The notes: generated from the letters alone by a model not told the origin. Positions 33,855 to 57,753 are shown, numbered from the stretch's first letter. The stretch: 64,000 bases of DNA from a virus (IMGVR_UViG_3300042887_002597:46234-110233), one strand, 5' to 3'. Numbers and translations are program-made.

Positions 33855-34152
33855 GTTCTTTCGCCATCTTCTTGAATATCTTATCGTCAGAAAATGCGTT
33901 GTTTGACTTCCTAATCATGTTGACAAACCACGCGACAGACTTGGCCTGTTGCCAAGCCTCTCGCACTGAATTTGCTGGCGGATACAAGAGCTCTGCCGGT
34001 ACGACAGACTCTGCATCTTCACCATGTACTACGGAATAGTGACCCGCACTATTCATCGCAGTCCGAGCTCCGGGAAATCGCTTCTCAATGAAGCGTTTCA
34101 TCTTCTGAAATTCCTTCTGCTCTGGGGATAATACAATCTTCTGCTTACGCAT
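33838..34152 (-). CDS. hypothetical protein
   Basis: 104-aa ORF. Confidence 0.55.
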   Translation of the reverse strand: MRKQKIVLSPEQKEFQKMKRFIEKRFPGARTAMNSAGHYSVVHGEDAESVVPAELLYPPANSVREAWQQAKSVAWFVNMIRKSNNAFSDDKIFKKMAKERGNEE

Positions 34153-35336
34153 TAGAACGGCATTTTAGAAGAAGTGTAATCCTCATTCATCAAGGTCTCA
34201 TCAGAGCCATCAGTCACGTATTTCTGCACTAACTGCTTAACAAACGTACGCTCAGACTGCAAGCCACCCTCCGCAGAATACAAAGGATAGATAGCTACCT
34301 CAGCACACTCTTCAAGCGTGAATCCGTCAGACATAAGACCCGCCATCTCCACTACAGAACGTGTAGAGATAGGAGTCTGAATGCGCGGAGAATCCGTACG
34401 CATCTCAGTACGAGTAGCAGACGCAATCTCTGCAAGATTCATAGCAATAGCTCTCGATAAAGTAGGCTGTACCTGGCAGATAAGAGTAGCCTCTTGAGCC
34501 GGCTCTAAGAAAGGAATCTCAGCAATAACGAAGCGGTCTAACAACGCACGGTCCATCACACGAACTGCGGTATACTCACTACCAATGTTAGCAGTACCGA
34601 TGAAACATACACCCTCTGCAACCTTAACAGTCGGAGAGTTTACAGCCTCGTCAAGACGCAAGTAACGCTGGTTAGGATCAAGTACAGTCATAAGGATGTT
34701 CCAAGCCTCTGGATGTGCGCGAGATACCTCGTCAAGCAAAATCACAGTATTCGGAGTCTTCAGAGCCTTAACAAAAGCAGACTCGTTAAAGAACGTACCT
34801 GCATCCTTAGAGAAGTGCGTGTTACCAATCAACGCACCACGCGGATCTTGCGTAGCTCCTAAGTTGATATAGAAAATCTCACGCTCCATAGCCTTCGCTG
34901 CAGCGAACGCAGTCTGCGACTTACCACAACCGGTAGGACCCGTCAATAGCATGTTAGTACCGCGCAATACAGAGCGACATATAAACTTCCACGTCAAATC
35001 CTCGCAGAACAAGGTCTCAGGACGTTTCTCTACGCACGTGTTAAGGAAAGCCATAACAGTGTTCTCTGCTGCAGGAACTGCAGTCTCATTAACTGATTTT
35101 TTACTCATAGTCTTAGTATTAGGTGAAACCTGGCGCCATTTGCCGGATTCGTTAGACAACCACATCCCAGCCTTGAAAGCCTTAGATAGCGTCATATACG
35201 TGATTTCACTGGTAATGTCAGCGCCGTTAATAGTGTTAAAGGCTCTTACTGATTCGCCACGTTTTCCAGCGGCTAAACAAACTTCTGCGATAATTGCGGT
35301 GTTCATAGTGTTTTGTGTTTTTGTGTTATTTTTCAT
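34152..35336 (-). CDS. MoxR/CobS-like AAA+ ATPase
   Basis: 394 aa. Walker A LLTGPTGCGKSQTA, Walker B VILLDEVSRAHPE, arginine-finger-like region. AAA_5 type, as found in phage CobS-like proteins. Confidence 0.7.
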   Translation of the reverse strand: MKNNTKTQNTMNTAIIAEVCLAAGKRGESVRAFNTINGADITSEITYMTLSKAFKAGMWLSNESGKWRQVSPNTKTMSKKSVNETAVPAAENTVMAFLNTCVEKRPETLFCEDLTWKFICRSVLRGTNMLLTGPTGCGKSQTAFAAAKAMEREIFYINLGATQDPRGALIGNTHFSKDAGTFFNESAFVKALKTPNTVILLDEVSRAHPEAWNILMTVLDPNQRYLRLDEAVNSPTVKVAEGVCFIGTANIGSEYTAVRVMDRALLDRFVIAEIPFLEPAQEATLICQVQPTLSRAIAMNLAEIASATRTEMRTDSPRIQTPISTRSVVEMAGLMSDGFTLEECAEVAIYPLYSAEGGLQSERTFVKQLVQKYVTDGSDETLMNEDYTSSKMPF

Positions 35337-35442: not shown

Positions 35443-36486
35443 TTAGAGCGCAGCCTGGTCCTTGCACCAATCGTAGATTGAATCAGCTACTGAGTCAACC
35501 ATAGCATCTGCTACTGAACGCTCGTCCCACGACGTTTCTACGCTAAAATCGCGACCGTAACCGGAGTTAATCTCCACGTCAACTGCGCTCTCGCAATCGA
35601 CCTCTCCAATAGAGTCAATCAGCGCACTACGCAAGTCAAAGTCCTCTTCAAATGCACGCATTACGGCGATCCAATCGATCTGCCCCGTTGCGTCGTTAGT
35701 GGCGATAGCAGCAGGCTGTACAGCCGGTTCTACTGGTGTTGTATTACACTTAGCAAGTGCGATAGCTCTCGCTTCTAAGTCGTTCAACAAAGTCCTAAAT
35801 CCACTGGCTCCTAACAACACATCGAGAGTCTGCGCAATAACTGCACCATTAGCAGCCAACGACGTATTACCAGTCCACTCGTAATCAATCACCTCAAACT
35901 CCTCTGTATTTGCGTTCTCTACAACAGCTTTATATATGAAGGTCACGCCAGTAGGCAATGTCACTGGGATTGCGATGTGGTACTGTTTGTACGGCGTATC
36001 AATAGCAGGTGTACCGATATTAAGGATGTTGCTAATTGCGTTGTTTGTCGTCTCTGAATTTTGCATGTTTTGCGTGTTTATTGTGTTATTTATTTCTTGA
36101 TTTAGTGCGGTAAATGCGGCCTTTACGCCTTCGCAAATTACCTCTTTTGGTATGGCTCCTTGACGGAGTCTATTCACGTATAGTGCGTAATCACTACACC
36201 CTTGAACGCGTCTCATCTCCACTTCGAAGACGTCAGACCCCATAGTAATAGTGGGATGTGCGGCAACGTAATCCAGCATGGATGTAGTCCTAAATTCGCG
36301 GTTAACACCCCAGTACTTAGTACGCGCGCCAAACGTGCGCATTTCGGTGAAAATTCGGTTATAGCCTTCGCCTGGTTTCATGCCAATAGTCTCCATCATT
36401 TTCTTGCGGTATTCGCGCAAAACTGGTACTAAGTACGGGTAATCGAAAGGGTGAATGTGCTCGTAGCGGTCTGTTAATTTCTGCAT
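35443..36486 (-). CDS. hypothetical protein
   Basis: 347-aa ORF, acidic C-terminus. Confidence 0.65.
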   Translation of the reverse strand: MQKLTDRYEHIHPFDYPYLVPVLREYRKKMMETIGMKPGEGYNRIFTEMRTFGARTKYWGVNREFRTTSMLDYVAAHPTITMGSDVFEVEMRRVQGCSDYALYVNRLRQGAIPKEVICEGVKAAFTALNQEINNTINTQNMQNSETTNNAISNILNIGTPAIDTPYKQYHIAIPVTLPTGVTFIYKAVVENANTEEFEVIDYEWTGNTSLAANGAVIAQTLDVLLGASGFRTLLNDLEARAIALAKCNTTPVEPAVQPAAIATNDATGQIDWIAVMRAFEEDFDLRSALIDSIGEVDCESAVDVEINSGYGRDFSVETSWDERSVADAMVDSVADSIYDWCKDQAAL

Positions 36487-36512
36487 TTTCTGTGTGTTTT
36501 TTGTGTGTTAAT

Positions 36513-36653
36513 TACTTCAATCCAAGGGCGTCTCCTACCCATAATGTAGCGATAAAAATCGCAAGGATAGTGGTGAAAAAGGTTGCTGCTTTCAGCAATT
36601 CTAGCGGGTTCTCAACCCACGCATTTTTGAGTGTTTTTATCATTTCTTTCATA
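36513..36653 (-). CDS. small membrane protein candidate (46 aa)
   Basis: My own translation: MKEMIKTLKNAWVENPLELLKAATFFTTILAIFIATLWVGDALGLK. Confidence 0.3.
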
Positions 36654-36746
36654 GCCTAAAGGTCCCTCTTTTTTTTGGTTCTACAACCGCGCAATTACTG
36701 CGGAGCGTTGTGTGTAACTGTGTGATTGTCAGCAAGTTAAGCGCTT

Positions 36747-36765
36747 ATTTAGACGTTCTCTAAAT
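36747..36765. promoter_or_regulatory. 19-bp perfect palindrome ATTTAGA-CGTTC-TCTAAAT
   Basis: One of four copies; the others are at 37718-37736, 42064-42082 and 47804-47822. Confidence 0.5.
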
Positions 36766-37009
36766 TAGTGTTTTCCGCGTTTTCTGCAGCAGAATAATGA
36801 GCATCTAAGAACTCCCAAATCTGGTCAGTTAACTCAAGGTCATCCAGCTCGTAACCGTGCTTAGTACGCATGATTGAGTCGATTACTTTCCCGTCTTTGT
36901 TTATGTACTCAAGGACGTGAATCACGTCGTCTGACGCGGTTTTCAACACGGTTCTCTGAACCGTCAGTACTTCTGTTTCTGTATATAAAATATCCATGAT
37001 TTTATGCAA
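36749..37009 (-). CDS. hypothetical protein
   Basis: 86-aa ORF. Confidence 0.55.
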   Translation of the reverse strand: MHKIMDILYTETEVLTVQRTVLKTASDDVIHVLEYINKDGKVIDSIMRTKHGYELDDLELTDQIWEFLDAHYSAAENAENTNLENV

Positions 37010-37018
37010 TTTTAGTGA

Positions 37019-37240
37019 TTATTTCTTTGACTTGTTCTTCGCATCAATAGCGTCTTCTGCAGCTCTCAAAAGCTTGATGAACAGCGGGTTATCCTTCTCG
37101 ATCTCCTCGTTGTTATCGCAGTCGCGAACTTCGTATTCCCACGATAATCCCGTGTCTGCAACGCGTACTTCGTAGTTAATGTCTTCGTGCTCAATATCCA
37201 CGAGATACGAGCTAAATGTGGTAATGTTAAAAACGTCCAT
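37019..37240 (-). CDS. hypothetical protein
   Basis: 73-aa ORF. Confidence 0.5.
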   Translation of the reverse strand: MDVFNITTFSSYLVDIEHEDINYEVRVADTGLSWEYEVRDCDNNEEIEKDNPLFIKLLRAAEDAIDAKNKSKK

Positions 37241-37263
37241 TTTATGTGTGTATTAAAGGGTTA

Positions 37264-37623
37264 TTACTTAGTTTGTGCGGTTAATGCGATCAACTGACCA
37301 TTCACCATCTTATGCGGAACTCCGCCTACCATCACGTACTTAGACTGCATAGCATTCAACGGTACACGTGGGTTATTAGCACGTACCTTGGAGATACGCT
37401 GTAATACCGGGATAGCAGTAGTCTTAGACTCAATAGCAACCACAGCAGGCGTAGAAGCCTCGAAAGATGCAGAGTTATTGAACTCTAACGCTTTCTGGCG
37501 GTAGTAGTGGGATTGCCAGTTGATCTCTTCACGCTTTTCAGCAGGGACTAACGTGAACTTCGCAGTAGATGCGGGTGTATACGCTTTTAGCGCGTTTTTC
37601 GGTTGTGTGTTCTTTTTATTCAT
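37264..37623 (-). CDS. hypothetical protein
   Basis: 119-aa ORF preceded by a promoter-like element at 37627-37662. Confidence 0.6.
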   Translation of the reverse strand: MNKKNTQPKNALKAYTPASTAKFTLVPAEKREEINWQSHYYRQKALEFNNSASFEASTPAVVAIESKTTAIPVLQRISKVRANNPRVPLNAMQSKYVMVGGVPHKMVNGQLIALTAQTK

Positions 37624-37717
37624 ATAGTAAAGATACTCCTAATATCCAGATGTACAACCGCGCGTGGCCTGCGGCCCCCTTTGCATAACCCAGTGATTAC
37701 CAACACGTTACCGTGTT

Positions 37718-37736
37718 ATTTAGAATGTCTCTAAAT
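37718..37736. promoter_or_regulatory. 19-bp palindrome ATTTAGA-ATGTC-TCTAAAT
   Basis: Copy 2 of 4. Confidence 0.5.
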
Positions 37737-37752
37737 TAGTGTTTCCCGCATT

Positions 37753-38190
37753 TTATGGGGCGACTTTTTTTACACCCGTCTTGTAAACCTTTAACCACAC
37801 GCGTGCGTTGTTCCACCACCCACTATACAAGTGGTAGCAAATGTCGTCGTTGGGATGCTTAAACTCGCTACTCCACACGAAGTTCACAATGTTCCCTGTC
37901 TTTGGATTATACAGCGTAATCTCTGTGTATTTACCCTTGCTATACTCATACAGCCGTCTACCAAACGCATTAGCCTTGGTGACCAAGGTGGAAGCATCTT
38001 CATCGTAATGAAAAGCGTCCTTCGTAAGATCCGCATGAATCGTGGTTAAAGGAGGCGCTACAACTTGGTCCAATGCCTCTTTGATCCACTCAGCTGCCGT
38101 GGGGCCTACAGTGATTTGTGTGGTTTGATATCTGCTATTCATGCCGTGTAGCAGCTTGCTTAGCAATGAGTCTTCTTCAGTAGGTTCCAT
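37753..38190 (-). CDS. hypothetical protein
   Basis: 145-aa ORF. Confidence 0.6.
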   Translation of the reverse strand: MEPTEEDSLLSKLLHGMNSRYQTTQITVGPTAAEWIKEALDQVVAPPLTTIHADLTKDAFHYDEDASTLVTKANAFGRRLYEYSKGKYTEITLYNPKTGNIVNFVWSSEFKHPNDDICYHLYSGWWNNARVWLKVYKTGVKKVAP

Positions 38191-38192
38191 GT

Positions 38193-38531
38193 TTATATCT
38201 TTTTATATGCTCCATTGTAACGCGCAGTAGCCGCGTCTCTCCATACGTTCATACGCAAGTGTACTCCCTTGTACACTGCTTGGTACACTATGCACAAGGG
38301 ACTTGCGGTAAGCTTGGTAAACTGCACGATTACGTCAGTCTCTATATTCTCCACGTCAATAGGGTGTTGTGTCCAATCATCCTCCATAGTAGGTGGATCG
38401 GAGAACACATCGTAACGTGTAATGTGCAGTGTACGTGAAGTTTCGTCATATACAGTTGAGCTATCTATGCTAATCTTAAAGGCTATGTCTAAATCTTTCA
38501 TGTAATGTAGGTTGTTTATTAGTTGGTGCAA
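38193..38531 (-). CDS. hypothetical protein (paralog of 39207..39536)
   Basis: 112 aa. Shares RTLH(I/V)T, GVY and VW(R/L)D blocks with 39207..39536. Confidence 0.55.
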   Translation of the reverse strand: MHQLINNLHYMKDLDIAFKISIDSSTVYDETSRTLHITRYDVFSDPPTMEDDWTQHPIDVENIETDVIVQFTKLTASPLCIVYQAVYKGVHLRMNVWRDAATARYNGAYKKI

Positions 38532-39174
38532 CGCACGTCATGTGCAGTAAGTCTACCATAAGGTATAGATCGTTCAGCATATCGCGGAACGCCACGCGTC
38601 TCTCGCTAGCCGTGACCATCTCAAAGTCCGCGTATCCGTCAGTATCCGTGTTGTGTACGCGTATGATGCAATACCCAATGTCTTTGCACGATTTGAGCAG
38701 ATCCTTATGCCGTAATAGTGCGCCATCCGAGATGGTTACAATACGTGACTTCTCATCAAATGACATCACATGGCCTTCTTGGAAGATATCTATGAACACC
38801 ACGTTATCCACGGTTGCTACGCCATCAGTCTCCTTGACATGGTACGATATACACGACGCTAAGCCAGATTCTCCAACAAGCGTCTGTCTCCCGCTATTAT
38901 CAATGATCCCATATAGTACTGTGGATCTATGCGCTGGAGTAGGGTGCTTGCCAATCGCAAATACCTTGGCCTTTGTGTACCTTGGCATAGCTAAATTCTC
39001 ATGCTTGTTGTCAAACAGCATCTGCTCGAACATATCCTTGAACTGCGGGTAAGTATGTCCAGGTTCTACAACCCACACGTACTGCCCCATCTTGAATTTT
39101 GGTTTGTCTTTCATACCTGCGTTTTTTGTGTGTTTTCTATTATTGTGTAAAAGCGTTGCTCTGAGTCTATTCAT
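38476..39174 (-). CDS. hypothetical protein
   Basis: 232-aa ORF. Confidence 0.6.
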   Translation of the reverse strand: MNRLRATLLHNNRKHTKNAGMKDKPKFKMGQYVWVVEPGHTYPQFKDMFEQMLFDNKHENLAMPRYTKAKVFAIGKHPTPAHRSTVLYGIIDNSGRQTLVGESGLASCISYHVKETDGVATVDNVVFIDIFQEGHVMSFDEKSRIVTISDGALLRHKDLLKSCKDIGYCIIRVHNTDTDGYADFEMVTASERRVAFRDMLNDLYLMVDLLHMTCVAPTNKQPTLHERFRHSL

Positions 39175-39206
39175 TTATGTATGTTATATGTGACCAAACG
39201 CGCGAT

Positions 39207-39536
39207 TTATGCGGGTTTGGTAACGTTTATGTTACCTTCTTCTACTGCACGATCTCTGGTATCCTTGTCTAGCCACACGTCAAGGTACAATGTCTTACTC
39301 CCGTAAACACCCTGGAACATTGCGCGATTTGCTTCTGGCCCTGTATCCATCCATGGTCTGAACACCACGGATATATTGGTCTCTGTGTTAGTTACACGAA
39401 TGTCATCTTTGCACCAAGCCCCGAACCCAGTGTTACGTAGAAACAGATTGTCTACTGTAACGTGCAATGTACGCATGTCTTCCTCGTATATGAAGTCTCC
39501 TTTTGATGGATTAAGTATTAATGTATATTCTGCCAT
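39207..39536 (-). CDS. hypothetical protein (paralog of 38193..38531)
   Basis: 109 aa. Confidence 0.55.
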   Translation of the reverse strand: MAEYTLILNPSKGDFIYEEDMRTLHVTVDNLFLRNTGFGAWCKDDIRVTNTETNISVVFRPWMDTGPEANRAMFQGVYGSKTLYLDVWLDKDTRDRAVEEGNINVTKPA

Positions 39537-39539
39537 AAT

Positions 39540-39868
39540 AGTGTTGTTTCTTGTGTATGCTAATGTCTCTTATAGGCCCATCGGGGGGTGGGATAGACAC
39601 CACACACCGTGTGGGGTTGAGTGTCTGTTTCCTATAGGAAAAAAAATTTGTGCGGGATATAAACCCGTCTAGTTGGCGTTTTAAAACGCGCTTATACCCC
39701 CGGTTTTCACGTTATTATAGGGGTGTATACCCCCCCTATATTCGCCGGAAATCATAGGGGGGACCCCCCTTGTTTACAGCTGTTCTAGAGGGGGGGACCC
39801 CTCCCGCTTATACCGGCGTATGTACCCCCCCTATGCCCCCATGTTTCTATGGGTGTATCCCCCTATGC
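39540..39868. repeat. intergenic cluster of G-run/C-run inverted repeats (GGGGGG-N-CCCCCC hairpins) with TATAGGGG/CCCCTATA motifs
   Basis: At least 6 copies: ATAGGGGTGTATACCCCCCCTAT, CATAGGGGGGACCCCCCTTG, GAGGGGGGGACCCCTCCC, TACCCCCCCTATGCCCCCATG, GGGTGTATCCCCCTATG, and CCACACACCGTGTGG. The only strongly GC-rich stretch in the window. Confidence 0.6.
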
Positions 39869-42001
39869 CTATGCTTTCGCAGATGGTGCGAGGAACTTGC
39901 TGTTCAATGTTCTTGCTATCCCTAGCATGTCCTGCGCAGTTACTGCGAAGCTGTTCTTCACTCCGTACATCCCTGAGAAGTAATCCTTCACTACTGGCTT
40001 ACGGTTGTTATCCCCGTATGACCCGTACTCTATGAAGAAGCTTATTATCTTCATCCCTAACTGGTTCTCTAAGAGCTGCATGTACTTGCGGGTATGCTTA
40101 GATGCTGCTTCCCCGTAGTAATTGCCTGTTCCACCTGGAGCTCCGTCAGAGAAGTTAATGAAGTAGCTGTCGCAGTTAGTGCTGCTTGGCACGAACATGT
40201 TACGCTTGTATTGCGCTTCGAAGCATAGTCCCTCCGGAGTCACGCTACAAGTGCTGGTTAGCGCTAAGGCTTGCATAAGCTGTTGTAGCGGGTTAATGCG
40301 GCTGTCGTAAACAGTGATGATTACTGGGCTGCTTAGCTTATCGTTAGCAGTATGTCTAAGGCTTACTTGTACGTGCATGTTAGTGCAGTGTCTAGCAGCC
40401 TTGGCAATTGCGATGGTCATAGACGATGTCTGTTCCCACTTGTCTCCTCCCATACTACCACTTGCATCCAGCGATAAGTGCAGGTTTACACCCTTATACT
40501 TATCTACGTGGATCTGCTTGAAGATGTTCTCTACTCCGTATCCTGCGTGGGCTATACGCTTAGCATCTAGACCACCAGTTCTCAAGCGGTTTGTAACCAA
40601 CTCTCTCTCCTCGTTTCTAAGCTGCAACTTACGTCCCAACATAGCTCCCTGGTTGAATCCCGCTTGTACTGCCTTGTCCTTACCTGCACTTACTCCTCTG
40701 TAGAAGTAAGAGCCTATTGCTTCGTTCAAGATATGCGCGTACACACGTTGTCTATCCTCAGGTACAGTGGAGCTTAGAAGCGCCATGTATTCCATGAAGA
40801 TACGGCCGTTCTTAGTAAGGTCGTAGGTTACTGCAGTAAAGCTCTGGATACTATCATCGCCTCCAACCTGCTGTATTTCTGCAGCAGCTTGCGTTAAGCT
40901 TTGTACCTTTCTCTGCAGGTTCTTAGTACCTTCCTTTCTCTCACCAACTCTGCCCTCTCCTAGATCCTTCTGTTTCTGCAGCTGTTCGAGAGCCTCTCGC
41001 ATCTGCGCATTAGTAAGGTCTTCTAGAGTCTCTCCTTCTCCTTCCCCACTATCTTCGCCAGACTCATCATCCTCGCCATCTTCCCCACCAGAATTGCCGT
41101 CTCCACCTTCTTCCTCATCATCCTCTTCACCGCCATTACCCTGGCCTTTGCCACCCTTGTCCTTAGACTGCTTATCCTGCGGATCTCCGTCCTTCTCCTC
41201 TTGCTCCTGCAGTTCCTCCGCCTTAGCGATAGCTTGTTCGATCAAGTCATGCACTTCCTGTGCAAGATCTATAACATCCTGGGTAGTCTTCAAACGTGCA
41301 ATGTTCGCAGTGTCTATAAGATCCAAGACTTGCTTAAGCCCAGGCATAGCGTTAGGATCCGAAGCTGGGTTCAGACAGTTGATGATACGCATCTCCCACG
41401 ACTCCCACTGCGAAGCATCACGGAACTTGCGACTCTTCAGAGCCTTAGTAATCGCATCAGCTACGAAGTACGTATCGTACAACTTGTGATAGTATGCGCG
41501 ATACCCGGGGGAAGTAGAGAACACGAACTGGTCAATACGTCTGTCCTCAATCCAGTTAATAAGCGGGAATAAGGTCTGCCACTTCATATGACCAGTGTCC
41601 ATGCGTGTTTGCGTAGTAGCATCAAAGTCAGTCATAATGCAGTGTGCAGACTCGTGTAGAGCCAGCGCTACGTGCAGGTCAAAGTTAGCATCCTTAATGT
41701 CCGCAGATAACGAGATGGTCTTGCCATCCGTATAGCTCTGGTTTCCCTGGAAGACTAGCTTGATATCCTTCTTAGTCAGGATCTTTGCGAAGTTCCCGAT
41801 GGCACGGTGATAACCCGCTAATTTAATAGCTTTGATCACATCACTGGTACCCTTGGAACCTGCACCAAGTCCGGAGAACTTATCTGATGCACCCCAGCTC
41901 TTGTCCATCCAGAAACTGCTATAATTGCGGGTTGTATCGTACTTAGACTTCGCAGTCTTTGCGTGTTTCCCGACGATCGATTTAATGCTTGCGTTTTTCA
42001 T
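39869..42001 (-). CDS. CobT-like protein: N-terminal HExxH motif, acidic Gly/Glu/Asp linker, C-terminal von Willebrand A (MIDAS) domain
   Basis: 710 aa. LHESAHC (HExxH); about 60-aa poly-acidic stretch GEEDDEEEGGDGNSGGEDGEDDESGEDSGEGEGE; MIDAS motif HLSLDASGSMGG. This architecture partners MoxR/CobS AAA ATPases. Confidence 0.65.
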   Translation of the reverse strand: MKNASIKSIVGKHAKTAKSKYDTTRNYSSFWMDKSWGASDKFSGLGAGSKGTSDVIKAIKLAGYHRAIGNFAKILTKKDIKLVFQGNQSYTDGKTISLSADIKDANFDLHVALALHESAHCIMTDFDATTQTRMDTGHMKWQTLFPLINWIEDRRIDQFVFSTSPGYRAYYHKLYDTYFVADAITKALKSRKFRDASQWESWEMRIINCLNPASDPNAMPGLKQVLDLIDTANIARLKTTQDVIDLAQEVHDLIEQAIAKAEELQEQEEKDGDPQDKQSKDKGGKGQGNGGEEDDEEEGGDGNSGGEDGEDDESGEDSGEGEGETLEDLTNAQMREALEQLQKQKDLGEGRVGERKEGTKNLQRKVQSLTQAAAEIQQVGGDDSIQSFTAVTYDLTKNGRIFMEYMALLSSTVPEDRQRVYAHILNEAIGSYFYRGVSAGKDKAVQAGFNQGAMLGRKLQLRNEERELVTNRLRTGGLDAKRIAHAGYGVENIFKQIHVDKYKGVNLHLSLDASGSMGGDKWEQTSSMTIAIAKAARHCTNMHVQVSLRHTANDKLSSPVIITVYDSRINPLQQLMQALALTSTCSVTPEGLCFEAQYKRNMFVPSSTNCDSYFINFSDGAPGGTGNYYGEAASKHTRKYMQLLENQLGMKIISFFIEYGSYGDNNRKPVVKDYFSGMYGVKNSFAVTAQDMLGIARTLNSKFLAPSAKA

Positions 42002-42019
42002 ATGTGTGTGTATTATAGG

Positions 42020-42082
42020 ATAAAGATCACCCTATTATTTGGATATACAACCGGTGTGCATAAATTTAGAATGATTCTAAAT
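42020..42082 (-). promoter_or_regulatory. early-type promoter (GGTGATCTTTATCC -7 variant, CGGTTGT -33) preceded by ATTTAGA-N5-TCTAAAT operator-like palindrome
   Basis: The same arrangement recurs at 35342-35375, 37627-37736 and 47761-47822. Confidence 0.45.
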
Positions 42083-42106
42083 AAGTAACCAGCTGAGTAT
42101 CAGTAA

Positions 42107-42128
42107 ACTAAGAACCCCCTTTGACGGG
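42107..42128 (-). terminator. terminator-like hairpin
   Basis: AACCCCCC-GTCAAA-GGGGGGTT stem-loop following the stop of 42167..42499. The T-run is weak. Confidence 0.4.
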
Positions 42129-42166
42129 GGGTTCATTAGCTTTGTAACACACACAAAACCACTAAG

Positions 42167-42499
42167 TTAGGCTAGAAACTTCTCGCCCTTCTTAGTAATA
42201 CGATATACACCGTTGTCTACGCGCTTTAACAGCTTCTCAGACACGGCAGTACGTGCAGCACGCAATACTACACCATCGAATGAACGATTGTCCATTTCTG
42301 TAGTAGGGATGCGCATTCTACGACGTAGGGTTGAACGGTCAATAGTTTCCTCGTTTGATGCAGCGTAGAGGACACGCTCTTTCCATGTTTTGGTCATAAC
42401 CTTATGTATTGATTTATATTTACAATATACGCTAAACATTCCGTTAAAACAACGGGTTGGGTGTTTATTTTTTATAGAAAAAAATTTGCGGATCGGCAA
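42167..42499 (-). CDS. putative DNA-binding protein (winged-helix-like C-terminus)
   Basis: 110-aa ORF; the likely real start is the internal MTKTWKERV. C-terminal GVYRITKKGEKFLA resembles a wing/recognition segment. Inference. Confidence 0.45.
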   Translation of the reverse strand: MPIRKFFSIKNKHPTRCFNGMFSVYCKYKSIHKVMTKTWKERVLYAASNEETIDRSTLRRRMRIPTTEMDNRSFDGVVLRAARTAVSEKLLKRVDNGVYRITKKGEKFLA

Positions 42500-42830
42500 A
42501 AGAATTTGTTAGTTTTCCTTTCCCCCCTAATTTTCATGAGTGTCTATCTTTTTTTAATATGTCTTGTTTATACGCCCTAAGGAAACAATAGGCTAAAAGT
42601 ATCTAAGTGTCTATCCTATCCTTATGTATACAATAAAGGGGGAAGCTTTCGTTCTCCCCCCCGTACTATACTATGTGTATCTATCCCTTCTTACCCCTCT
42701 TGTTCTTCCACTTTCTCTCTTGTATCTTCTCTCGTACTAACCCCCCTAACAATAGTACTAATAGCCCTGTACTGACTATAAGGGTCATCCAATGTATTTC
42801 TATTCTATCCATCTATATGCCCTCCTTCAG
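42480..42830. repeat. intergenic regulatory region with direct repeats GTGTCTATC (x3), a GGGGGAAG...CTCCCCC hairpin and a 160-nt pyrimidine-rich tract
   Basis: GAGTGTCTATCTTT (42536), AAGTGTCTATCCTATCC (42605), ATGTGTATCTATCCC (42672). Plus-strand sequence from 42700-42830 is about 75% C/T. Confidence 0.5.
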
Positions 42831-43090
42831 TAGGTTTCGTATGTCTGTTCAAAGATATTTGGTTTGCATGGATAGTATTCTCCTTGCACTCCTTTAATGA
42901 TCCAATCCCCTTCTGTAGCTATATGCTGCCCTTCTAAGGTTGGAATGATACAAGTACATTTGCCATCTATTCTCTTCTCGATTGTAAGAGTGTGTGCCTT
43001 GCCTTGTGTGAAGGATTGTACTGCTTTCCAATTCATTCTGGTGAACTGTACTGCTTCTATCACTATTGGTTTCTTTCTGAACTTTGCCAT
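42827..43090 (-). CDS. hypothetical protein
   Basis: 87-aa ORF. Confidence 0.55.
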   Translation of the reverse strand: MAKFRKKPIVIEAVQFTRMNWKAVQSFTQGKAHTLTIEKRIDGKCTCIIPTLEGQHIATEGDWIIKGVQGEYYPCKPNIFEQTYETY

Positions 43091-43102
43091 TGTTTTATCT
43101 AT

Positions 43103-43261
43103 TGCCTTTTCTTTATGCTATCATACACTACAACGTAGATCATTGTTACCATTAGTAATAGTATCCCTACTGCTGGCCATAGGAACATTGATACTGCGAA
43201 CCCTAATAGTCCTAATAGGATTGCTGTTGTTATTAAGTGTGCCTTTGTGTTGCTCATTGCT
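43103..43261 (-). CDS. small two-TM membrane protein (52 aa)
   Basis: My own translation: MSNTKAHLITTAILLGLLGFAVSMFLWPAVGILLLMVTMIYVVVYDSIKKRQ. The antisense plus-strand ORF 42897..43274 is Leu-rich and looks spurious. Confidence 0.4.
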
Positions 43262-43262
43262 T

Positions 43263-43613
43263 TTACTTCTTTAGCCAGTATAGATTCTCTGAGTCCCCAT
43301 CCATATAGAATGCTACCTCTCCTATCTTAGGCTTATTGTTAGTATAGAATACCACTCCGTTCTCTGATGTTACTTCCCACTTGTATCCATCCATGTTTGT
43401 TTTGGTTACACTTGTAATAGGTACTGGGAACAATGGTGTAAGGAGATCAGTTGCTGTGTCTGGGATGCTTGTTGTTGTATTGCTACTGCTGCTATCCCTT
43501 GCTGCTTTCCATAATAGCTTTTGTGCTACTTGAGGTGTTAGTGACTCTTCCCCTTGGCAAGATGTCATTAGTGTTATAGCTATTGCTGCTAATGTTATGT
43601 ATGCTCTTTTCAT
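43263..43613 (-). CDS. lipoprotein
   Basis: 116 aa. MKRAYITLAAIAITLMTSC signal peptide with lipobox. Confidence 0.6.
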   Translation of the reverse strand: MKRAYITLAAIAITLMTSCQGEESLTPQVAQKLLWKAARDSSSSNTTTSIPDTATDLLTPLFPVPITSVTKTNMDGYKWEVTSENGVVFYTNNKPKIGEVAFYMDGDSENLYWLKK

Positions 43614-43626
43614 TTGCGTTTGTGTA

Positions 43627-44112
43627 TTAGTGTCTTATCTCGTTAATGGTATCCTGTTGGGATGTTGTGTCTGCTGGGTACATGATTATAGTCCCGAAGT
43701 CGTATACTGTGTCCTGCTTCTCTATTGTTACTATGATAGGTACTCGTTCCCCATACTGATCTACCCAGTACAAGTCTTGTGTTACCTTTGGTGAGCATCC
43801 TATTAGTAGTGTTACCATTGCTACTGAGAGTATTCGTAATGCGCCTGCCATGTAACCCTTTACCCAGATGTCCTTGTCTTGCTCTGTACACCCGTCACAT
43901 CCTTCCCATGCTTGCTCTGCCATCCCTTGTAGTTCTGACACACGTTCCATTCTACGCATCTGCTCAGTCTTAATTAAAGCGTCTGCATAGTCTGATACAG
44001 ACTTCTTAACATCCTGAGGTGTCTCTTGTAATAGTCTCTCTACCGTCTTAGTCTTCATCGTTCCCCCTCCAGTTCTTTGATTAGAGCCTTCATTGCTTCG
44101 TATTGTCCCCAC
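43627..44112 (-). CDS. membrane protein
   Basis: 161 aa with internal TM ALRILSVAMVTLLIG. Confidence 0.55.
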   Translation of the reverse strand: MGTIRSNEGSNQRTGGGTMKTKTVERLLQETPQDVKKSVSDYADALIKTEQMRRMERVSELQGMAEQAWEGCDGCTEQDKDIWVKGYMAGALRILSVAMVTLLIGCSPKVTQDLYWVDQYGERVPIIVTIEKQDTVYDFGTIIMYPADTTSQQDTINEIRH

Positions 44113-44396
44113 GTTAGTTGGAATCTGCTATCCATCATAATGTTCCCACTCACTTCTACATCAAAGCCTTCCCCATTGTGCCACTCACATACTTCTATGT
44201 AGTCGTTTGGTTTAGCTAAGTGGTCGAACTCAGTGAGCTCAGCGAACACAGCTTTGCGGTTGTATCCTTGTATAGTACTCTTTTGCATCTCCATCTCTTT
44301 AGCCTGCTCAAAGGCTGATTGGAATAGTTGTTCTTGCTCGTACGTAAGTCCGCTCTTTAGGACCTTCTCTAGCCATTCAATTGTGTTCTGTTTACT
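44055..44396 (-). CDS. small MSKQ-family protein, paralog 3
   Basis: Start re-set to the internal MSKQNTIEWLEK (the track ORF begins 40 codons upstream and overlaps the upstream gene out of frame). The upstream paralog's stop overlaps this start. Confidence 0.55.
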   Translation of the reverse strand, partial: SKQNTIEWLEKVLKSGLTYEQEQLFQSAFEQAKEMEMQKSTIQGYNRKAVFAELTEFDHLAKPNDYIEVCEWHNGEGFDVEVSGNIMMDSRFQLTWGQYEAMKALIKELEGER

Positions 44397-44613
44397 CATT
44401 GCTATCTCTATATGTTTCGTTGTAGTATTGTTCAGAAGTACCACATTGTCCACCTGATATACCATCATACCAAGCAGTTTCAATCTGCTCCTTCTCCATC
44501 TCTTTGGCTTGTTCAATCATATGAGTAGGAATCCAATTGCCATTTTTATGAATTTCTTCCCCATTTTTATTAATTTCTTCCACCAACCATTCAACCGCAG
44601 TTTGCTTACTCAT
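44392..44613 (-). CDS. small MSKQ-family protein, paralog 2
   Basis: MSKQTAVEWLVEEINK ... YYNETYRDSNE. Shares its N-terminus and YYNETY C-terminus with paralog 1. Confidence 0.55.
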   Translation of the reverse strand: MSKQTAVEWLVEEINKNGEEIHKNGNWIPTHMIEQAKEMEKEQIETAWYDGISGGQCGTSEQYYNETYRDSNE

Positions 44614-44833
44614 TGTTACCTCCATACGTCTCGTTGTAGTATAGTTCTGCTCTGCCCATATTAGGATCGAAGTTTGTTCCCATAGAGTCGTACACTGCTT
44701 TCATTAGCTGCTCCTTCTCCATCTGGATAGCTTGCTCCACTATATCCTTCCACTGCTCTCCTGAGAGTGTCTTCTGGTTCTCTTCATCGGCTACTTGTTC
44801 CATTAGCCAATGTACTGCTGTTTGCTTACTCAT
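44606..44833 (-). CDS. small MSKQ-family protein, paralog 1
   Basis: MSKQTAVHWLMEQVADEE ... YYNETYGGNNE. Its start overlaps the stop of 44830..45099. Confidence 0.55.
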   Translation of the reverse strand: MSKQTAVHWLMEQVADEENQKTLSGEQWKDIVEQAIQMEKEQLMKAVYDSMGTNFDPNMGRAELYYNETYGGNNE

Positions 44834-45099
44834 AGTTTTTCTAGTTCTTGTTTTACTTTCCCCCAATATCTAAACTCTGAATCCATGTTCTGAAGTTCGA
44901 GTGATTCACCTCTACCATAGTCAGTAAGTGCTTGTTCTATCTCATCTACTGCTATCAAGGCACATTGCTTAATTTGGCTGTCGTACATAGAGACAGGTAG
45001 TCCTTGAGAGTACTTGTTCTTACCTCTTAACTTCCGATAATGAATCACATTCATCTTGGCTAATAAATCTTCTGCCTTTTCTTTTGGTGTCATAGTCAT
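44830..45099 (-). CDS. hypothetical protein
   Basis: 89-aa ORF. Confidence 0.55.
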   Translation of the reverse strand: MTMTPKEKAEDLLAKMNVIHYRKLRGKNKYSQGLPVSMYDSQIKQCALIAVDEIEQALTDYGRGESLELQNMDSEFRYWGKVKQELEKL

Positions 45100-45225
45100 T
45101 TAGTTTTAGATAATTCCTCTGGTCACTAAGTCAAGTACAATTATGCCTACGATGCCTCCAATAGCAAACCCTAATGTAAATCCGTTCATAAACACTTCTT
45201 CTTTCTTTTCCATAGTCATTTAGTT

Positions 45226-45795
45226 TTATAGGTCTGAACCATACAATCCGTTCTTCTTATCTTCTTCCATCAACTCAATAAGAGCTTCCTTCTGCTTACC
45301 CTTTGTGTAATAGTCTCTCTCGATCTTACTGGCCATGTCTTGTAGTTCTCGGTCTGCTACAATACTGATACGTAAGTCATACCACTCCCACTTGGTCTTC
45401 CAGTCCATGAACCTTATTCCTTTAGTCAGTCTCTGAGATAGTTTGCTCAGTCTCCAATTACGTACTCTCACAATAGACTTATCGTTGCCGAATAAATCCA
45501 GTAAGCGTAGGAACCATCTTGGACATAGTGCTGGCTTAGCCTTCTTGTCCATAGCAAGTACTAACGGTCGTATCACTTCACTTATGTCACTACCTTCAGT
45601 TGTGTGAATGTAGCCTAAGTAACCATACTTCTCGTTGAAGTCCTTTGGAAAGAATACCTCACGTAGATCGTTCCACGTGATATCTCTCGTGTGAATCATA
45701 CCTTTCTTTCTACCCTTCCAGAACATAGCACTACGACCGAAGTCTGCTGCACGTTGCTGGAAGGTTCTATTATCTACTATCTTGAACTTACTCAT
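45226..45795 (-). CDS. hypothetical protein
   Basis: 189-aa ORF, Trp/Arg-rich. Confidence 0.6.
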   Translation of the reverse strand: MSKFKIVDNRTFQQRAADFGRSAMFWKGRKKGMIHTRDITWNDLREVFFPKDFNEKYGYLGYIHTTEGSDISEVIRPLVLAMDKKAKPALCPRWFLRLLDLFGNDKSIVRVRNWRLSKLSQRLTKGIRFMDWKTKWEWYDLRISIVADRELQDMASKIERDYYTKGKQKEALIELMEEDKKNGLYGSDL

Positions 45796-46091
45796 ATTAT
45801 TACTGCTACGTCTTTATCTGTTACATCGAACTCACTTGTGCCAACTGCAATGTTATGCACTTCAAAGTCCACAAAGCCTGCATCCATCCCTGGTAGAATC
45901 TCAGTGTCAGGATGCACTGGTAGTTCTTCGTATCGTGTTGTAGTTGACAGTACTTCCCCATCAAACTCCTGCACAACCTCCTTCACAAAGTTGAATCGTA
46001 CGACCCAGCCTTTGCTTTCTGTGTACGCTAACTTACCGGTCATAGTCCTATCTTTGGTGCTATTGTATTGGTGGATGCGAATTGTATCCAC
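45792..46091 (-). CDS. hypothetical protein
   Basis: 99-aa ORF, 4-nt overlap with the downstream gene. Confidence 0.55.
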   Translation of the reverse strand: MDTIRIHQYNSTKDRTMTGKLAYTESKGWVVRFNFVKEVVQEFDGEVLSTTTRYEELPVHPDTEILPGMDAGFVDFEVHNIAVGTSEFDVTDKDVAVII

Positions 46092-46354
46092 TTAGCTACA
46101 TCGTCTGCACTGCAGTGTCCTAAGACTTCATCATGCTTCTCCTCGAACTCATACCAGGTTCCATTAGCATCCCAGATAGCAATCTCTGCTGTAGTGCATT
46201 GTGTCTTGGACTCCTTGTTCTTGTTTGCACAGTAGTTGCCCATACCGAACTGAACGCTAATGGTATTGCCGTTACTGAACTTCATAGTGAATCCAGATGG
46301 GACTAGCGTCTGCAGTTCCTGCATGGATTTAGGGTGTTTGTTTATCTTTATCAT
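46040..46354 (-). CDS. hypothetical protein
   Basis: 104-aa ORF. Confidence 0.5.
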   Translation of the reverse strand: MIKINKHPKSMQELQTLVPSGFTMKFSNGNTISVQFGMGNYCANKNKESKTQCTTAEIAIWDANGTWYEFEEKHDEVLGHCSADDVAKWIQFASTNTIAPKIGL

Positions 46355-46360
46355 TGCGTG

Positions 46361-46705
46361 TTATTTATCATATCCTACGAACTTCGCATCAAAATCCTCG
46401 ACATACCCCATCTCCACTAACTCATCCCAACACCAGTCATTCAACCAGTAGTTCTGTACCATTTCAAGATTGCGAATAGCATCCATATGGATAGCGTCTA
46501 CATCGTAGCCAGTTCCAAAGCTATATCCGCATACACTCTTTGCAATCTCCATTACGTCGGTAGTCTTGCTATGATACAATGCCTTGTCTAACGCCTCTTT
46601 GATTGCAGTTTTCATCTTGTCAGCAACCATGTCATTGTGCTCGTACATTGCGGGATTCCAAGGTTTAGTAATCTCAATGCCGTGTTTTGTTCCTAATACT
46701 TTCAT
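46361..46705 (-). CDS. hypothetical protein
   Basis: 114-aa ORF preceded by a promoter-like element at 46736-46762. Confidence 0.6.
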   Translation of the reverse strand: MKVLGTKHGIEITKPWNPAMYEHNDMVADKMKTAIKEALDKALYHSKTTDVMEIAKSVCGYSFGTGYDVDAIHMDAIRNLEMVQNYWLNDWCWDELVEMGYVEDFDAKFVGYDK

Positions 46706-46774
46706 ATGTGTGTTTTTTTGTGTTTGATAAATATACGCTGATTATTTCGTTGAGACAACAGTTGTTCATAACTC

Positions 46775-47737
46775 TTATGACATAACTAAGTAAAGTATTG
46801 TCTTATCCATAACTGCTGCAAAGGTTGTAGCATTACGTCTGTTAAACACTGCAAATCCACCAGTAGCTGGGTTAGTCATAAGGATGTTCTTCAACAAATT
46901 CGGCTCAATCCCGTGATTAGCGACGTCATCCCACTTTCCAGTAAAGGTACGTATTTCTGGATTCCACTGAAATAGTGTGGATAATACGCTTATGTTGTTT
47001 GATATCTTCTTAAGCACAGGGTTAGCTGGCTTAGGTGGCGCTACAACAACCTTAGGTGTCGCAGTACTTGCGATGCTATCAATCATATGCATTCCTTCTT
47101 TCACGTGCCATCCTTTGATGTACACCTCTACTTCACCCATCTTCTGACATAAATCCTGCATCTCCTTCTGGAAACGTGCAACATCCTGCTGATTACGCAC
47201 ATACTGGATACCAGTACCTTTTACGCACACAGGTCCAACACCCGTAGCTTGCGACCTCCAGTCAGTTAACGACTTACCGCAACAACGGCATACACTAACA
47301 CTTCCGGTCCAATCAGCCTTGACAGTAGCTGTAAAGCCACGTCTATCGCGGTTCTTGATCTGAGTAACCACAAGTGTAGTGGGGTTCATAGACCATCCAA
47401 CAGACTTTGCGATATGTCTCGCAGAGGTAGCAGATACTACAATTGGAACATTGCATGAATCCACCAATACCTCGTTAGGATCTGCCACTGGCTTCGGGGT
47501 TAAGCACTTCTTAGCTGCTTCCCACTGCCTATCGCTGAGTTTACCGTACTTGCATAGTTTACTACGCAAATCTAGCACGAATCCGAATGTACCAGCATAC
47601 GCCATCAAATCCTTGTGTACTTGCTCGAGTCCCGTAGGAACTACGATAACTGCAGGTTTGCGTGGTGCTGTAGTTGCACTATTAGTGCGTTTTTTATAAG
47701 ATCGTGCGTAAATTGCGCCTGCCATAGGAAATGCCAT
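46775..47737 (-). CDS. hypothetical protein with Cys cluster
   Basis: 320 aa with a CRCCGKSL...GPVC cluster. Preceded by the promoter-like element at 47761-47796. Confidence 0.65.
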   Translation of the reverse strand: MAFPMAGAIYARSYKKRTNSATTAPRKPAVIVVPTGLEQVHKDLMAYAGTFGFVLDLRSKLCKYGKLSDRQWEAAKKCLTPKPVADPNEVLVDSCNVPIVVSATSARHIAKSVGWSMNPTTLVVTQIKNRDRRGFTATVKADWTGSVSVCRCCGKSLTDWRSQATGVGPVCVKGTGIQYVRNQQDVARFQKEMQDLCQKMGEVEVYIKGWHVKEGMHMIDSIASTATPKVVVAPPKPANPVLKKISNNISVLSTLFQWNPEIRTFTGKWDDVANHGIEPNLLKNILMTNPATGGFAVFNRRNATTFAAVMDKTILYLVMS

Positions 47738-47803
47738 AGTGTGTGTTTTTAATTGTTAGGTAAAGATACTACCATTATTTAGCTGAGACAACAGCTAAAC
47801 GTA

Positions 47804-47822
47804 ATTTAGACACATTCTAAAT
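47804..47822. promoter_or_regulatory. 19-bp palindrome ATTTAGA-CACAT-TCTAAAT
   Basis: Copy 4 of 4, about 10 bp upstream of the -33 element of the 47737 promoter. Confidence 0.5.
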
Positions 47823-47876
47823 AAGAACCCCTGAGAATCAGTAAGTTACATAACTCGTTGATAATCAGGGGTTTAC

Positions 47877-52312: not shown

Positions 52313-52360
52313 ATTAGTTCCTCCTATTTGTTAATATGTCAAAGAGCGCATCCACAATTG

Positions 52361-52434
52361 TGCGCCTTCCTGGGATCGAACCAGGTACCTACTGATTATG
52401 AGTCAGTTGCTCTAACCTAATGAGCTAAAGGCGC
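52361..52434 (-). tRNA. tRNA-Met/Ile2 (anticodon CAT)
   Basis: Folded by hand on the minus strand: acceptor GCGCCTT/AAGGCGC, D-arm GCTC-ATTAGGTTA-GAGC, anticodon arm ACTGA-CTCATAA-TCAGT, T-arm CCTGG-TTCGATC-CCAGG, discriminator A. Confidence 0.8.
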
Positions 52435-52435
52435 T

Positions 52436-52530
52436 ACTGTACTCAAGGAAGGAATTGAACCTTCACGAAGATCCTCGCTGGAAAGGCTATAACAGTTTGG
52501 ATAACTGCTTATACCTTAAGCAATCCTTTT
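52436..52530 (-). tRNA. aberrant tRNA-like element (T-arm GAAGG-TTCAATT-CCTTC present; rest does not fold canonically)
   Basis: Good T-arm and a possible acceptor GCTTAAG/CTTGAGT with 2 G-U pairs, but no clean D or anticodon arm by hand. About 82-90 nt, so possibly a type II tRNA, a pseudo-tRNA or an interrupted tRNA. Confidence 0.25.
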
Positions 52531-52811
52531 ATAGATCTTCTCGTTTGCTCCCCTTAGCGTCTACCATCGACCAGGGCCTCCTGATCCTTTCGCCACTTGA
52601 GTATGTTGCCCCACCTGAGATTAGGGTGAGTAGTTGTATCGGTTTGTTTCTTTCAAAAAACCTGCTGGGCATCCCCGTTAAAAAAAGTCAACACTCTTGG
52701 GAGGAGTTGTGTAGTTCTCCTTTGTTCCCACTATGTCCCACTCGCGCCGTAGACATTCTGCGAAATCATTGTTTAAGTCTTGATTCAAAGACTCTGAGTA
52801 TCTCTTACTCA

Positions 52812-52911
52812 TTGCAATCAGGATAGGATTCGAACCTATATTAACGCAAGTAGATTGGTACTGACCTTTCGGTTACTCCCGTTTCGCTGTGCTACCCAAT
52901 TACACCACCTG
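52812..52911 (-). tRNA. aberrant or intron-containing tRNA-like element (about 100 nt)
   Basis: Acceptor AGTCAGG/CCTGATT, D-arm GTGT-AATTGGGTA-GCAC and T-arm ATAGG-TTCGAAT-CCTAT fold. About 27 extra nt sit where the anticodon arm and variable region should be, and I could not identify an anticodon. Confidence 0.3.
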
Positions 52912-52929
52912 ACTGTGTTTTATTTTCTG

Positions 52930-53001
52930 TAGTCGATACGGGAATCGAACCCGTGTTACCAGAATGAAAATCTGAGGTCCTGACCCCTAGACGAATCGAC
53001 C
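52930..53001 (-). tRNA. tRNA-Glu (anticodon TTC)
   Basis: Acceptor GGTCGAT/ATCGACT (G-U at 1:72), D-arm GTCT-AGGGGTCA-GGAC, anticodon arm TCAGA-TTTTCAT-TCTGG, T-arm ACGGG-TTCGATT-CCCGT. 72 nt. Confidence 0.75.
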
Positions 53002-53007
53002 TTATAG

Positions 53008-53079: not shown

Positions 53080-53084
53080 TTTAG

Positions 53085-56016: not shown

Positions 56017-56072
56017 TTTCTCGATTCAGCAACAGTTGTTCATAACTTTCTAATTCGCTGAGCCTCATTGTG

Positions 56073-57729: not shown

Positions 57730-57753
57730 AAGTGTGTGGTTTTTTATTATTGA

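Follow-up and report, generated by a model that had tools for sequence, protein, structure and literature searches.

Conserved palindromes upstream of four promoters in a large freshwater phage: probable Fur-family boxes for its Bacteroidota host

Introduction

Which protein recognizes a perfect palindrome that a large, uncultured freshwater phage carries upstream of four of its promoters, and is this protein supplied by the phage or by its host? The question is raised by a viral DNA stretch of 64,000 nucleotides (IMGVR_UViG_3300042887_002597:46234-110233, hereafter the window), in which the sequence ATTTAGA-N5-TCTAAAT occurs four times between positions 36,747 and 47,822. An initial annotation of this stretch considered the palindromes as operators of a phage-encoded dimeric regulator controlling an early regulon. 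According to the analysis reported here, they are probably Fur-family boxes, read by the metal-loaded Fur protein of the host.

The window codes for a baseplate hub, endolysin-like domains and a CobS/CobT-like pair of AAA+ and VWA proteins. It is part of a large phage genome, and its relatives sit on contigs of 125-198 kb. About 90 of its 106 open reading frames (ORFs, defined by a simple longest-ORF rule) lie on the minus strand. No near-identical phage was found in INPHARED; at the protein level, Microcystis phage Mel-JY01 and one uncultured phage were the sole matches, through distant CobT-like proteins.

Results

The palindrome is sharply defined and matches known Fur-family boxes

The motif was searched over the whole window and its frequency was compared with chance expectation. 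Exact matches, with 7-bp arms and a 5-bp spacer, were found at 36747-36765, 37718-37736, 42064-42082 and 47804-47822, which reproduced all four coordinates of the initial annotation. None of 100 dinucleotide-preserving shuffles of the window contained a single match, so that four copies are observed where zero are expected. All four are intergenic and located between minus-strand genes, each being followed on this strand by a promoter-like string (GTTGT-N-...CTTTA) and then by a start codon; at 36747, the palindrome shares bases with the stop codon of ORF 36749-37009. Copies deviating at one or two positions are absent from the 64 kb, and the four additional matches obtained when up to three mismatches are allowed all carry three, which corresponds to the chance level. 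The motif is therefore sharply defined. Besides, no weaker Fur-type box above chance was detected elsewhere in the window.

When the inner positions are taken into account, the motif is a 19-bp 9-1-9 palindrome, ATTTAGAAT-N-ATTCTAAAT, with a 7-1-7 core, which is the same as the published Fur box of Riemerella anatipestifer, a member of the Flavobacteriaceae. The latter was predicted as 5'-ATTTAGAATTATTCTAAAT-3', the R. anatipestifer Fur protein shifts promoter fragments containing it in electrophoretic mobility shift assays (EMSA), and the sites listed for this bacterium include ATTTATA half-sites (PMC5609570). Scored against the R. anatipestifer 9-1-9 consensus, the four copies show 0 (42064), 2 (37718), 2 (47804) and 4 (36747) mismatches over the 18 specified positions. 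The copy at 42064 thus has no mismatch to ATTTAGAATNATTCTAAAT, and the weakest match, at 36747, has perfect arms and deviates at the inner four positions. In this copy and in that at 37718, hereafter the distal copies, the inner AT..AT is replaced by GA/CA..NN. Where bacteria have clusters of boxes, the secondary ones show comparable GA-type inner positions, as at position 7609 of locus L247 (L numbers designate the viral and bacterial loci compared); ATTTAGAGAGCTTCTAAAC in an Ekhidna genome illustrates such non-canonical inner positions. The core of the window palindrome also equals TTTAGAA-N3-TTCTAAA, the consensus of the iron control element (ICE), which is bound by the Fur-family protein Irr and acts positively or negatively depending on its location relative to the promoter (PMC1698941).

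The exact 19-mer was then scanned in bacteria, using one genome per species, and was found in at least 120 loci. Among the matches listed, 70 of 120 belong to Bacteroidota, the others being mostly from alpha-proteobacteria (the ICE lineage), Acidobacteriota, Verrucomicrobiota, Chloroflexota and Firmicutes. Twenty genes starting next to the box were examined in the Bacteroidota loci among these listed matches: nine encode TonB-dependent receptors, and HmuY, imelysin, SufB/D, NrdD, NqrA and a multihaem cytochrome are found among the others. This set is a typical iron regulon. In addition, for at least 14 of the 120 bacterial loci listed, tblastn with Escherichia coli Fur detected a fur-family gene directly adjoining the box, which is the classical signature of an autoregulated operator.

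The palindrome is also widespread in viruses, since a scan of IMG/VR for ATTTAGA-N5-TCTAAAT returned at least 120 matches in unrelated viral contigs. Among the matches listed, the spacer is AT-N-AT in 38 of 126 and only one step off in many more, and the flanks favour TT...AA. Because of these non-random spacers and preferred flanks, the widespread element is the 19-bp 9-1-9 palindrome. Fur-type boxes were frequently observed in these unrelated loci (L030-L149), for example at 2938 and 3365 in L082. In L055, three boxes (6797, 9942 and 12421) lie over the -33 position, 6 nt before TAnnTTTG -7 boxes, and one of them precedes a portal-protein gene.

The arms are conserved in the phage family

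Relatives of the window were collected through its CobT-like protein and a neighboring 76-aa protein. In loci whose CobT-like protein is 93, 91, 53 and 45% identical to that of the window, the palindrome is kept at orthologous positions, in front of the genes for the DUF6011, CobT-like and 119-aa proteins and of a small membrane ORF. The conservation in related phages that the initial annotation had called for thus holds for the arms down to 45% CobT-like identity, with a spacer that varies. The 14 arm positions do not change over 24 distinct instances, save for one recurrent half-site variant, ATTTATA, present as the left arm in L008 and L009 and, in the form TATAAAT, as the right arm in L001, L017, L018 and L028. 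The box at 42064 is kept in L002, L003, L004, L012, L014-16 and L005 (spacer atgaa), and with the single TATAAAT mismatch in the four loci just mentioned. Orthologous copies of the box at 47804 are found at position 2414 of L005, 1217 of L008 and 1603 of L017. The palindrome is altogether missing in the more distant relatives L010, L011, L024 and L029.

This pattern also bears on the nature of the element. The ATTTATA variant breaks the single G-C pair of the possible stem and is uncompensated, and an alignment of eleven distal modules, described below, revealed compensatory changes at none of the seven stem pairs. As an RNA stem, the palindrome reaches only -2.8 to -3.6 kcal/mol, and it has no match in Rfam. 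Because the arms are invariant, the spacer is free, covariation is absent and the RNA stem is weak, the palindrome behaves as the site of a sequence-specific dimeric DNA-binding protein and not as an RNA hairpin, as had been argued initially. The phage copies are maintained by selection on the arm sequence itself.

The boxes precede a particular class of Bacteroidota-type promoters

Every copy of the palindrome is trailed on the minus strand by the string GTTGT-N-(A/C)(T/C)CTTTA (Table 1). The -33/-7 promoter strings given by the initial annotation were approximately right, the actual -7 variants being GGACCTTTA, GTATCTTTA, TGATCTTTA and GTATCTTTA in the order of the coordinates. Two fixed geometries were observed, the box ending either 12-13 nt (proximal copies, 42064 and 47804) or 60 nt (distal copies, 36747 and 37718) from the TTG of the -33 element. 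The proximal palindromes come after a GC-rich hairpin followed by CTT, and the distal ones sit within a duplicated module of about 150 nt (36655-36805 and 37625-37776). This module aligns almost without gaps between the two paralogues and L001, L002, L005 and L008, and the box lies 60 nt from the TTG in 10 of 10 full-length distal modules, one variant having 61 nt. The distal module also holds an inverted repeat, CCGCAnAAAAnGCGG, a short stem that seemingly co-varies (ACACGgtaaCGTGT versus ACGCGgtaaCGCGT) and a CCGCA-N6-GCGCGG element abutting the -33 TTG.

The designation of these promoters as early-type was not borne out. The box-bearing promoters have a non-consensus, weakened -7 box and belong to a CTTTA-ending class with six members in the window (56033, 47792, 42051, 37658, 36687 and 35371), four of which carry the palindrome. 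Conversely, the palindrome accompanies none of the 12 promoter-like matches to the host-consensus -7 box found on the minus strand between 42.4 and 59.2 kb, which are mostly GTATATTTA and include the promoter of the winged-helix gene discussed below. At three CTTTA-type promoters (start codons at 36652, 37623 and 35336), the ATG lies just 4 nt past the -7 box, which would imply leaderless mRNAs.

The intergenic promoters of the window are of the Bacteroidota type, TTG near -33 and TAnnTTT(A/G) near -7 (TTG-N19-20-TAnnTTT(A/G)), an architecture noted for Flavobacteria (PMC5609570). No Shine-Dalgarno sequence was seen upstream of the start codons read in the window, several of these upstream regions ending instead in an ACACACA-like string, and one relative codes for a CHU_C domain. 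Taken together, the promoters, the absence of Shine-Dalgarno sequences and the CHU_C domain of the relative point to a Bacteroidota host.

Table 1. Fur-type boxes of the window with the associated promoters, genes and neighboring elements (positions counted from the first letter of the window; a dot stands for no strand).
Feature	Coordinates	Strand	Remarks
Fur-type box, proximal geometry	42064..42082	.	Gene strand ATTTAGAATCATTCTAAAT; perfect 9-1-9 palindrome; ends 13 nt before -33 TTG; centre at about -57 relative to the predicted transcription start
Fur-type box, proximal geometry	47804..47822	.	Gene strand ATTTAGAATGTGTCTAAAT; ends 12 nt before -33 TTG
Fur-type box, distal geometry	37718..37736	.	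Gene strand ATTTAGAGACATTCTAAAT; ends exactly 60 nt before -33 TTG; centre at about -103
Fur-type box, distal geometry	36747..36765	.	Gene strand ATTTAGAGAACGTCTAAAT; ends exactly 60 nt before -33 TTG
Predicted -33/-7 promoter GTTGT...TGATCTTTA	42021..42051	-	Promoter of the CobT-like VWA gene; conserved in relatives
Predicted -33/-7 promoter GTTGT...GTATCTTTA	47761..47792	-	Promoter of the DUF6011 gene
Predicted -33/-7 promoter GTTGT...GTATCTTTA	37628..37658	-	ATG 4 nt past the -7 box, leaderless geometry
Predicted -33/-7 promoter GTTGT...GGACCTTTA	36657..36687	-	ATG 4 nt past the -7 box
CobT-like/VWA protein, 710 aa	39869..42001	-	Downstream of box 42064
CobS-like AAA+ protein	34152..35336		Partner of the CobT-like protein
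Protein with DUF6011 motif, 320 aa	46775..47737	-	Downstream of box 47804
119-aa protein gene	37264..37623	-	Downstream of box 37718; followed by ORFs 37019-37240 and 36749-37009
Genes downstream of box 36747	35443..36652	-	46-aa hydrophobic ORF (36512-36652) and 347-aa protein (35443-36486)
Winged-helix protein, 76 aa	42167..42397	-	Own host-consensus promoter at about 42420-42453
GC-rich terminator-like hairpin GAACCCCCC-gtcaaa-GGGGGTTC	42112..42134	-	After the winged-helix gene, upstream of box 42064
Long inverted repeat with CTGA/TCA/GTTA/TAAC blocks (second motif)	47826..47875	-	Ends with TTCTT directly 5' of box 47804

The phage winged-helix protein and other explanations of the palindrome

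The binder proposed by the initial annotation was a winged-helix-like protein encoded at 42167-42499, which is really a 76-aa gene (42167-42397). The AlphaFold2 model of this protein is a winged helix (mean pLDDT 90.7), the best Foldseek matches being AspA of pNOB8, F93 of STIV, MarR/PadR proteins and a PhiH1 repressor-like protein. Hence, the predicted structure corresponds to a DNA-binding fold fit for the recognition of palindromes as a dimer. The protein is 95-100% identical in relatives whose neighboring CobT-like protein is only 53% identical, a constraint that is unusually strong for a small phage protein. Owing to this conservation, and because the recognition helix differs in clades devoid of the palindrome (L010, L024 and L029), it is a serious candidate. 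If it were the binder, the palindrome would be the operator of a phage regulator that has converged on the host Fur box or mimics it, for instance to compete with Fur, and the host-consensus, presumably early promoter of the 76-aa gene, directly upstream of one box, would suit such a role. We nevertheless regard this explanation as unlikely. The correlation between clades amounts to essentially one phylogenetic contrast, and co-occurrence within the phage family is only partial, as the clade of L008 and L019-21 keeps the same recognition helix although an A-tract replaces the site next to the gene. More importantly, the same 19-mer is common in the iron regulons of bacteria as well as in viral stretches unrelated to the window, and no winged-helix homologue was found in the 120 viral and 120 bacterial box-carrying stretches among the matches listed; among the stretches examined, homologues are confined to loci of the phage family. 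Finally, another motif of the region, TAAC-N3-CTGA-N3-TCAG-N3-GTTA, matches the distribution of the protein better. The winged-helix fold was thus confirmed by structure prediction, but the 76-aa protein is the less likely binder of this motif. The idea of a phage-encoded regulator controlling an early regulon does not fit either with a motif that corresponds to the Fur-family box of Bacteroidota and with promoters outside the early host-consensus class.

Two explanations would dispense with a dedicated binding protein. An AT-rich promoter element, acting like an UP element or through DNA shape, would account for the position of the proximal copies, at about -47 to -65 where UP elements lie, and for the A/T tracts or AT-rich palindromes found at the equivalent place in distant relatives. 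It is very improbable, however, given that exact 7+7 symmetry and fully invariant arms are not expected from such an element, that the distal copies lie 60 nt away from the -33 element and that this sequence accompanies iron genes in bacteria. The least probable explanation is a hairpin of RNA or single-stranded DNA serving as a terminator component, a processing site or a nut-like anti-termination site at the 3' end of the upstream transcript. It would agree with a perfect inverted repeat following gene ends and, for the proximal copies, coming directly after a GC-rich hairpin and TTCTT. Nevertheless, the weak stem is AU-rich and has no U-tract behind it, none of the 24 instances carries a compensatory change and the two arm changes observed break the only G-C pair. 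An adjacent putative stem does seem to co-vary (ACACG/CGTGT versus ACGCG/CGCGT), whereas the palindrome does not. Moreover, the loop is variable and the stem sequence invariant, which is the opposite of the pattern of boxB-type sites. An RNA hairpin or terminator was therefore rejected on account of its weak fold, the lack of covariation and the absence of an Rfam family.

Other candidate binders were also discarded. A phage-encoded Fur was rejected, as tblastn with E. coli Fur detected no homologue in the window or in the loci of the phage family. The TraR-like protein (57499-57771), put forward as a second regulator, belongs to the TraR/DksA family, which binds RNA polymerase and not DNA, and was set aside as a palindrome binder. 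Pfam scans of about 45 window proteins revealed no other DNA-binding candidate.

Other features of the region

A second composite motif is made of 4-bp blocks, TAAC-N3-CTGA-N3-TCA(G)-N3/4-GTTA, and is more widespread than the Fur-type box. It is found in the window at 30820-30844, 36715-36739, about 37690-37714, 42086-42103, 47831-47875 and 56051-56075, and in the relatives L008, L010, L019, L020, L024 and L029, including loci where the Fur-type box is absent. In the distal modules and in the more remote relatives, its centre lies some 40 nt before the -33 TTG of CTTTA-type promoters. Its blocks are inverted repeats, but since the spacers between them are non-complementary, the motif points to a protein-binding array and not to a hairpin, and it may plausibly be the operator of the phage winged-helix protein.

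Several features were observed around the CobT-like and winged-helix genes. Downstream of the former, a non-coding stretch of about 330 nt (39537-39868) is conserved across relatives better than the flanking protein. G7/C7 runs, GGGGGGTCCCCCC palindromes, repeated ATAGGGGGGG units and a TTTTTTTTCCTATAGGAAACAGACACTCA block are found in this stretch, which could correspond to a replication origin or to a non-coding RNA. CCTATAG(A/G)AAA..ACAC strings like those of this stretch also precede the winged-helix gene and are present in L010 and L024. In several relatives (L005, about 9835-9904; L012, about 580-630; L014; L017), a cassette of five to eight closely spaced GATC-containing repeats (TAGATC/GGATCC) stands directly 5' of the equivalent of box 42064. 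This cassette is absent from the window, and the -7 boxes TGATCTTTA also contain GATC. The contigs of at least four relatives (L002, L003, L006 and L007, including the 198-kb and 125-kb ones), which come from several assemblies, terminate about 45-80 nt upstream of the 76-aa protein gene. The equivalent region of the window, 42400-42680, has about 280 nt of non-coding sequence containing a terminator and GATAGACAC repeats, and could be a genome end or an assembly-breaking repeat. Further along, a full-length GOLLD RNA was identified at 53171-53587 on the minus strand (Rfam RF02032, 260 bits for a gathering score of 150). Directly downstream of this RNA is a tRNA cluster (52360-53159, minus strand), in which ARAGORN recognized Met, Glu, Thr and Met tRNAs and to which Rfam adds one tRNA at 52815-52914, in otherwise non-coding surroundings.

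Discussion

Probable control of four phage transcription units by the host Fur protein

From the identity of the motif, its association with iron genes in Bacteroidota and the conservation of its arms, we consider that the four palindromes are probably Fur-family boxes for the metal-loaded Fur dimer of the Bacteroidota host. During infection, Fe2+-Fur of the host would bind the four sites and couple four transcription units to the iron status of the cell, i.e., the DUF6011 gene, the CobT-like VWA gene, the 119-aa operon and the pair coding for the 46-aa and 347-aa products. Because the boxes are located upstream of the -33 element without overlapping it, the -7 boxes are weakened and the distal spacing is rigid, we favour a positive or architectural role of Fur, through activation or anti-silencing from upstream, over promoter occlusion. 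Positive action of Fur from upstream has precedents at ftnA in E. coli and at Neisseria promoters. Likewise, metal-bound Fur binds upstream of hilD (PMC3089636). Of the two modes of control suggested by the initial annotation, activation is thus possible, since the site lies upstream of the -33 element, and anti-termination finds no support. Repression, roadblocking of read-through transcription or titration of Fur by the replicating genome may represent other modes of action.

It is conceivable, though doubtful, that the boxes are aimed at the iron regulon of the host, either by titrating Fur through replication of the phage genome or by setting an iron-gated checkpoint between early and later stages. 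With hundreds of genome copies, each bearing four to five high-affinity boxes, Fur would be soaked up and host iron uptake de-repressed, which would feed phage replication in a manner similar to the laboratory Fur titration assay.

Several observations weigh against the assignment of the palindromes to host Fur. The two distal copies may be weak Fur sites, as their inner AT..AT is changed at positions that are usually conserved in Fur-family 7-1-7 boxes; despite these non-canonical positions, their conservation is just as strict as that of the proximal copies. A classical repressive Fur box overlaps the core promoter, from -33 to the transcription start, and the window boxes, unlike most repressive ones, are clear of it. 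In addition, the 76-aa protein is strongly conserved in precisely the clades that carry the box, and its recognition helix differs in those that lack it. Finally, the R. anatipestifer box itself rests on prediction and EMSA at the level of promoter fragments, with no footprinting (PMC5609570).

Significance and comparison with known systems

Fur-family boxes of the TTTAGAA-N3-TTCTAAA subtype and sites for host factors in phage genomes are already known. What is new here is the presence of multiple conserved boxes, at non-classical upstream positions, in a large uncultured freshwater phage of Bacteroidota. For temperate phages, direct Fur control of toxin genes is documented. In the literature searched, we found no large environmental phage reported to have its core transcription units wired in this way, and nothing comparable on Fur boxes in phage genomes. 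If host Fur does bind the four boxes, part of the expression program is under the iron sensor of the host in a family of large Bacteroidota phages from freshwater, with sites retained through extensive phage divergence. This would provide a testable link between phage development and iron supply, which is often limiting in lakes and oceans, as well as a sequence signature to predict Bacteroidota hosts and iron-responsive phage genes in metagenomes. The IMG/VR matches hint that Fur-type boxes are common in phages of Bacteroidota; were their presence in many unrelated Bacteroidota-like viral contigs to reflect Fur binding, iron sensing through host Fur would be general in the phages of this phylum.

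Among the systems to which the window can be compared, the non-canonical LexA boxes of Bacteroidetes, GGA-N5-TCC and CTAA-N5-TTAG, share with it the dyad-N5-dyad architecture and the phylum (PMC8565304). However, the window sequence TTTAGA-N5-TCTAAA reads TTAG...CTAA, in the opposite order, and as neither dyads nor spacing fit, LexA was discarded. The sites of some phage-encoded activators are also comparable. P2 late promoters have dyad sites for Ogr/Delta centred near -55 and phage Mu has sites for Mor and C, which are also palindromes just upstream of the -35 equivalent in a non-consensus class of phage promoters. These sites show no sequence similarity to the window motif, and the 64-kb window revealed no homologue of Ogr or Mor. 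The ICE/Irr system of Bradyrhizobium and other alpha-proteobacteria has a core identical to the phage box, and its position-dependent sign is a precedent for upstream, non-occluding sites such as those of the phage (PMC1698941). Irr, which senses haem, is confined to alpha-proteobacteria; it was rejected as the binder because the -33/-7 promoters of the phage indicate a Bacteroidota host.

Host-factor sites are carried by several phages, as illustrated by the Fur-regulated stx1 of Shiga-toxin prophages, the DtxR-controlled tox of corynephage beta and the NtcA and PhoB boxes of cyanophages. In these cases, as would be the case here, a phage promoter is wired to a global nutrient regulator of the host by a host-type operator. 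They mostly concern single sites at morons or auxiliary genes, whereas the present phage family has four to five conserved promoter sites, which lie in this phage of about 160-200 kb between the early and structural gene regions. The closest parallel is the Fur box of R. anatipestifer, a bacterium of the phylum to which the promoters assign the host. It is the same 19-bp 9-1-9 palindrome, from which the window copy at 42064 differs at the free central base alone, and the ATTTATA half-site variant is tolerated in both. Unlike this Flavobacteriaceae box, two of the phage copies have non-canonical inner positions, and the phage boxes precede genes without a recognized iron function. Bacterial Fur boxes usually lie at most about 100 bp from the start codon, often over the promoters of iron-uptake genes, whereas those of the phage stand upstream of the -33 element, an arrangement in line with the positive or architectural role favoured above.

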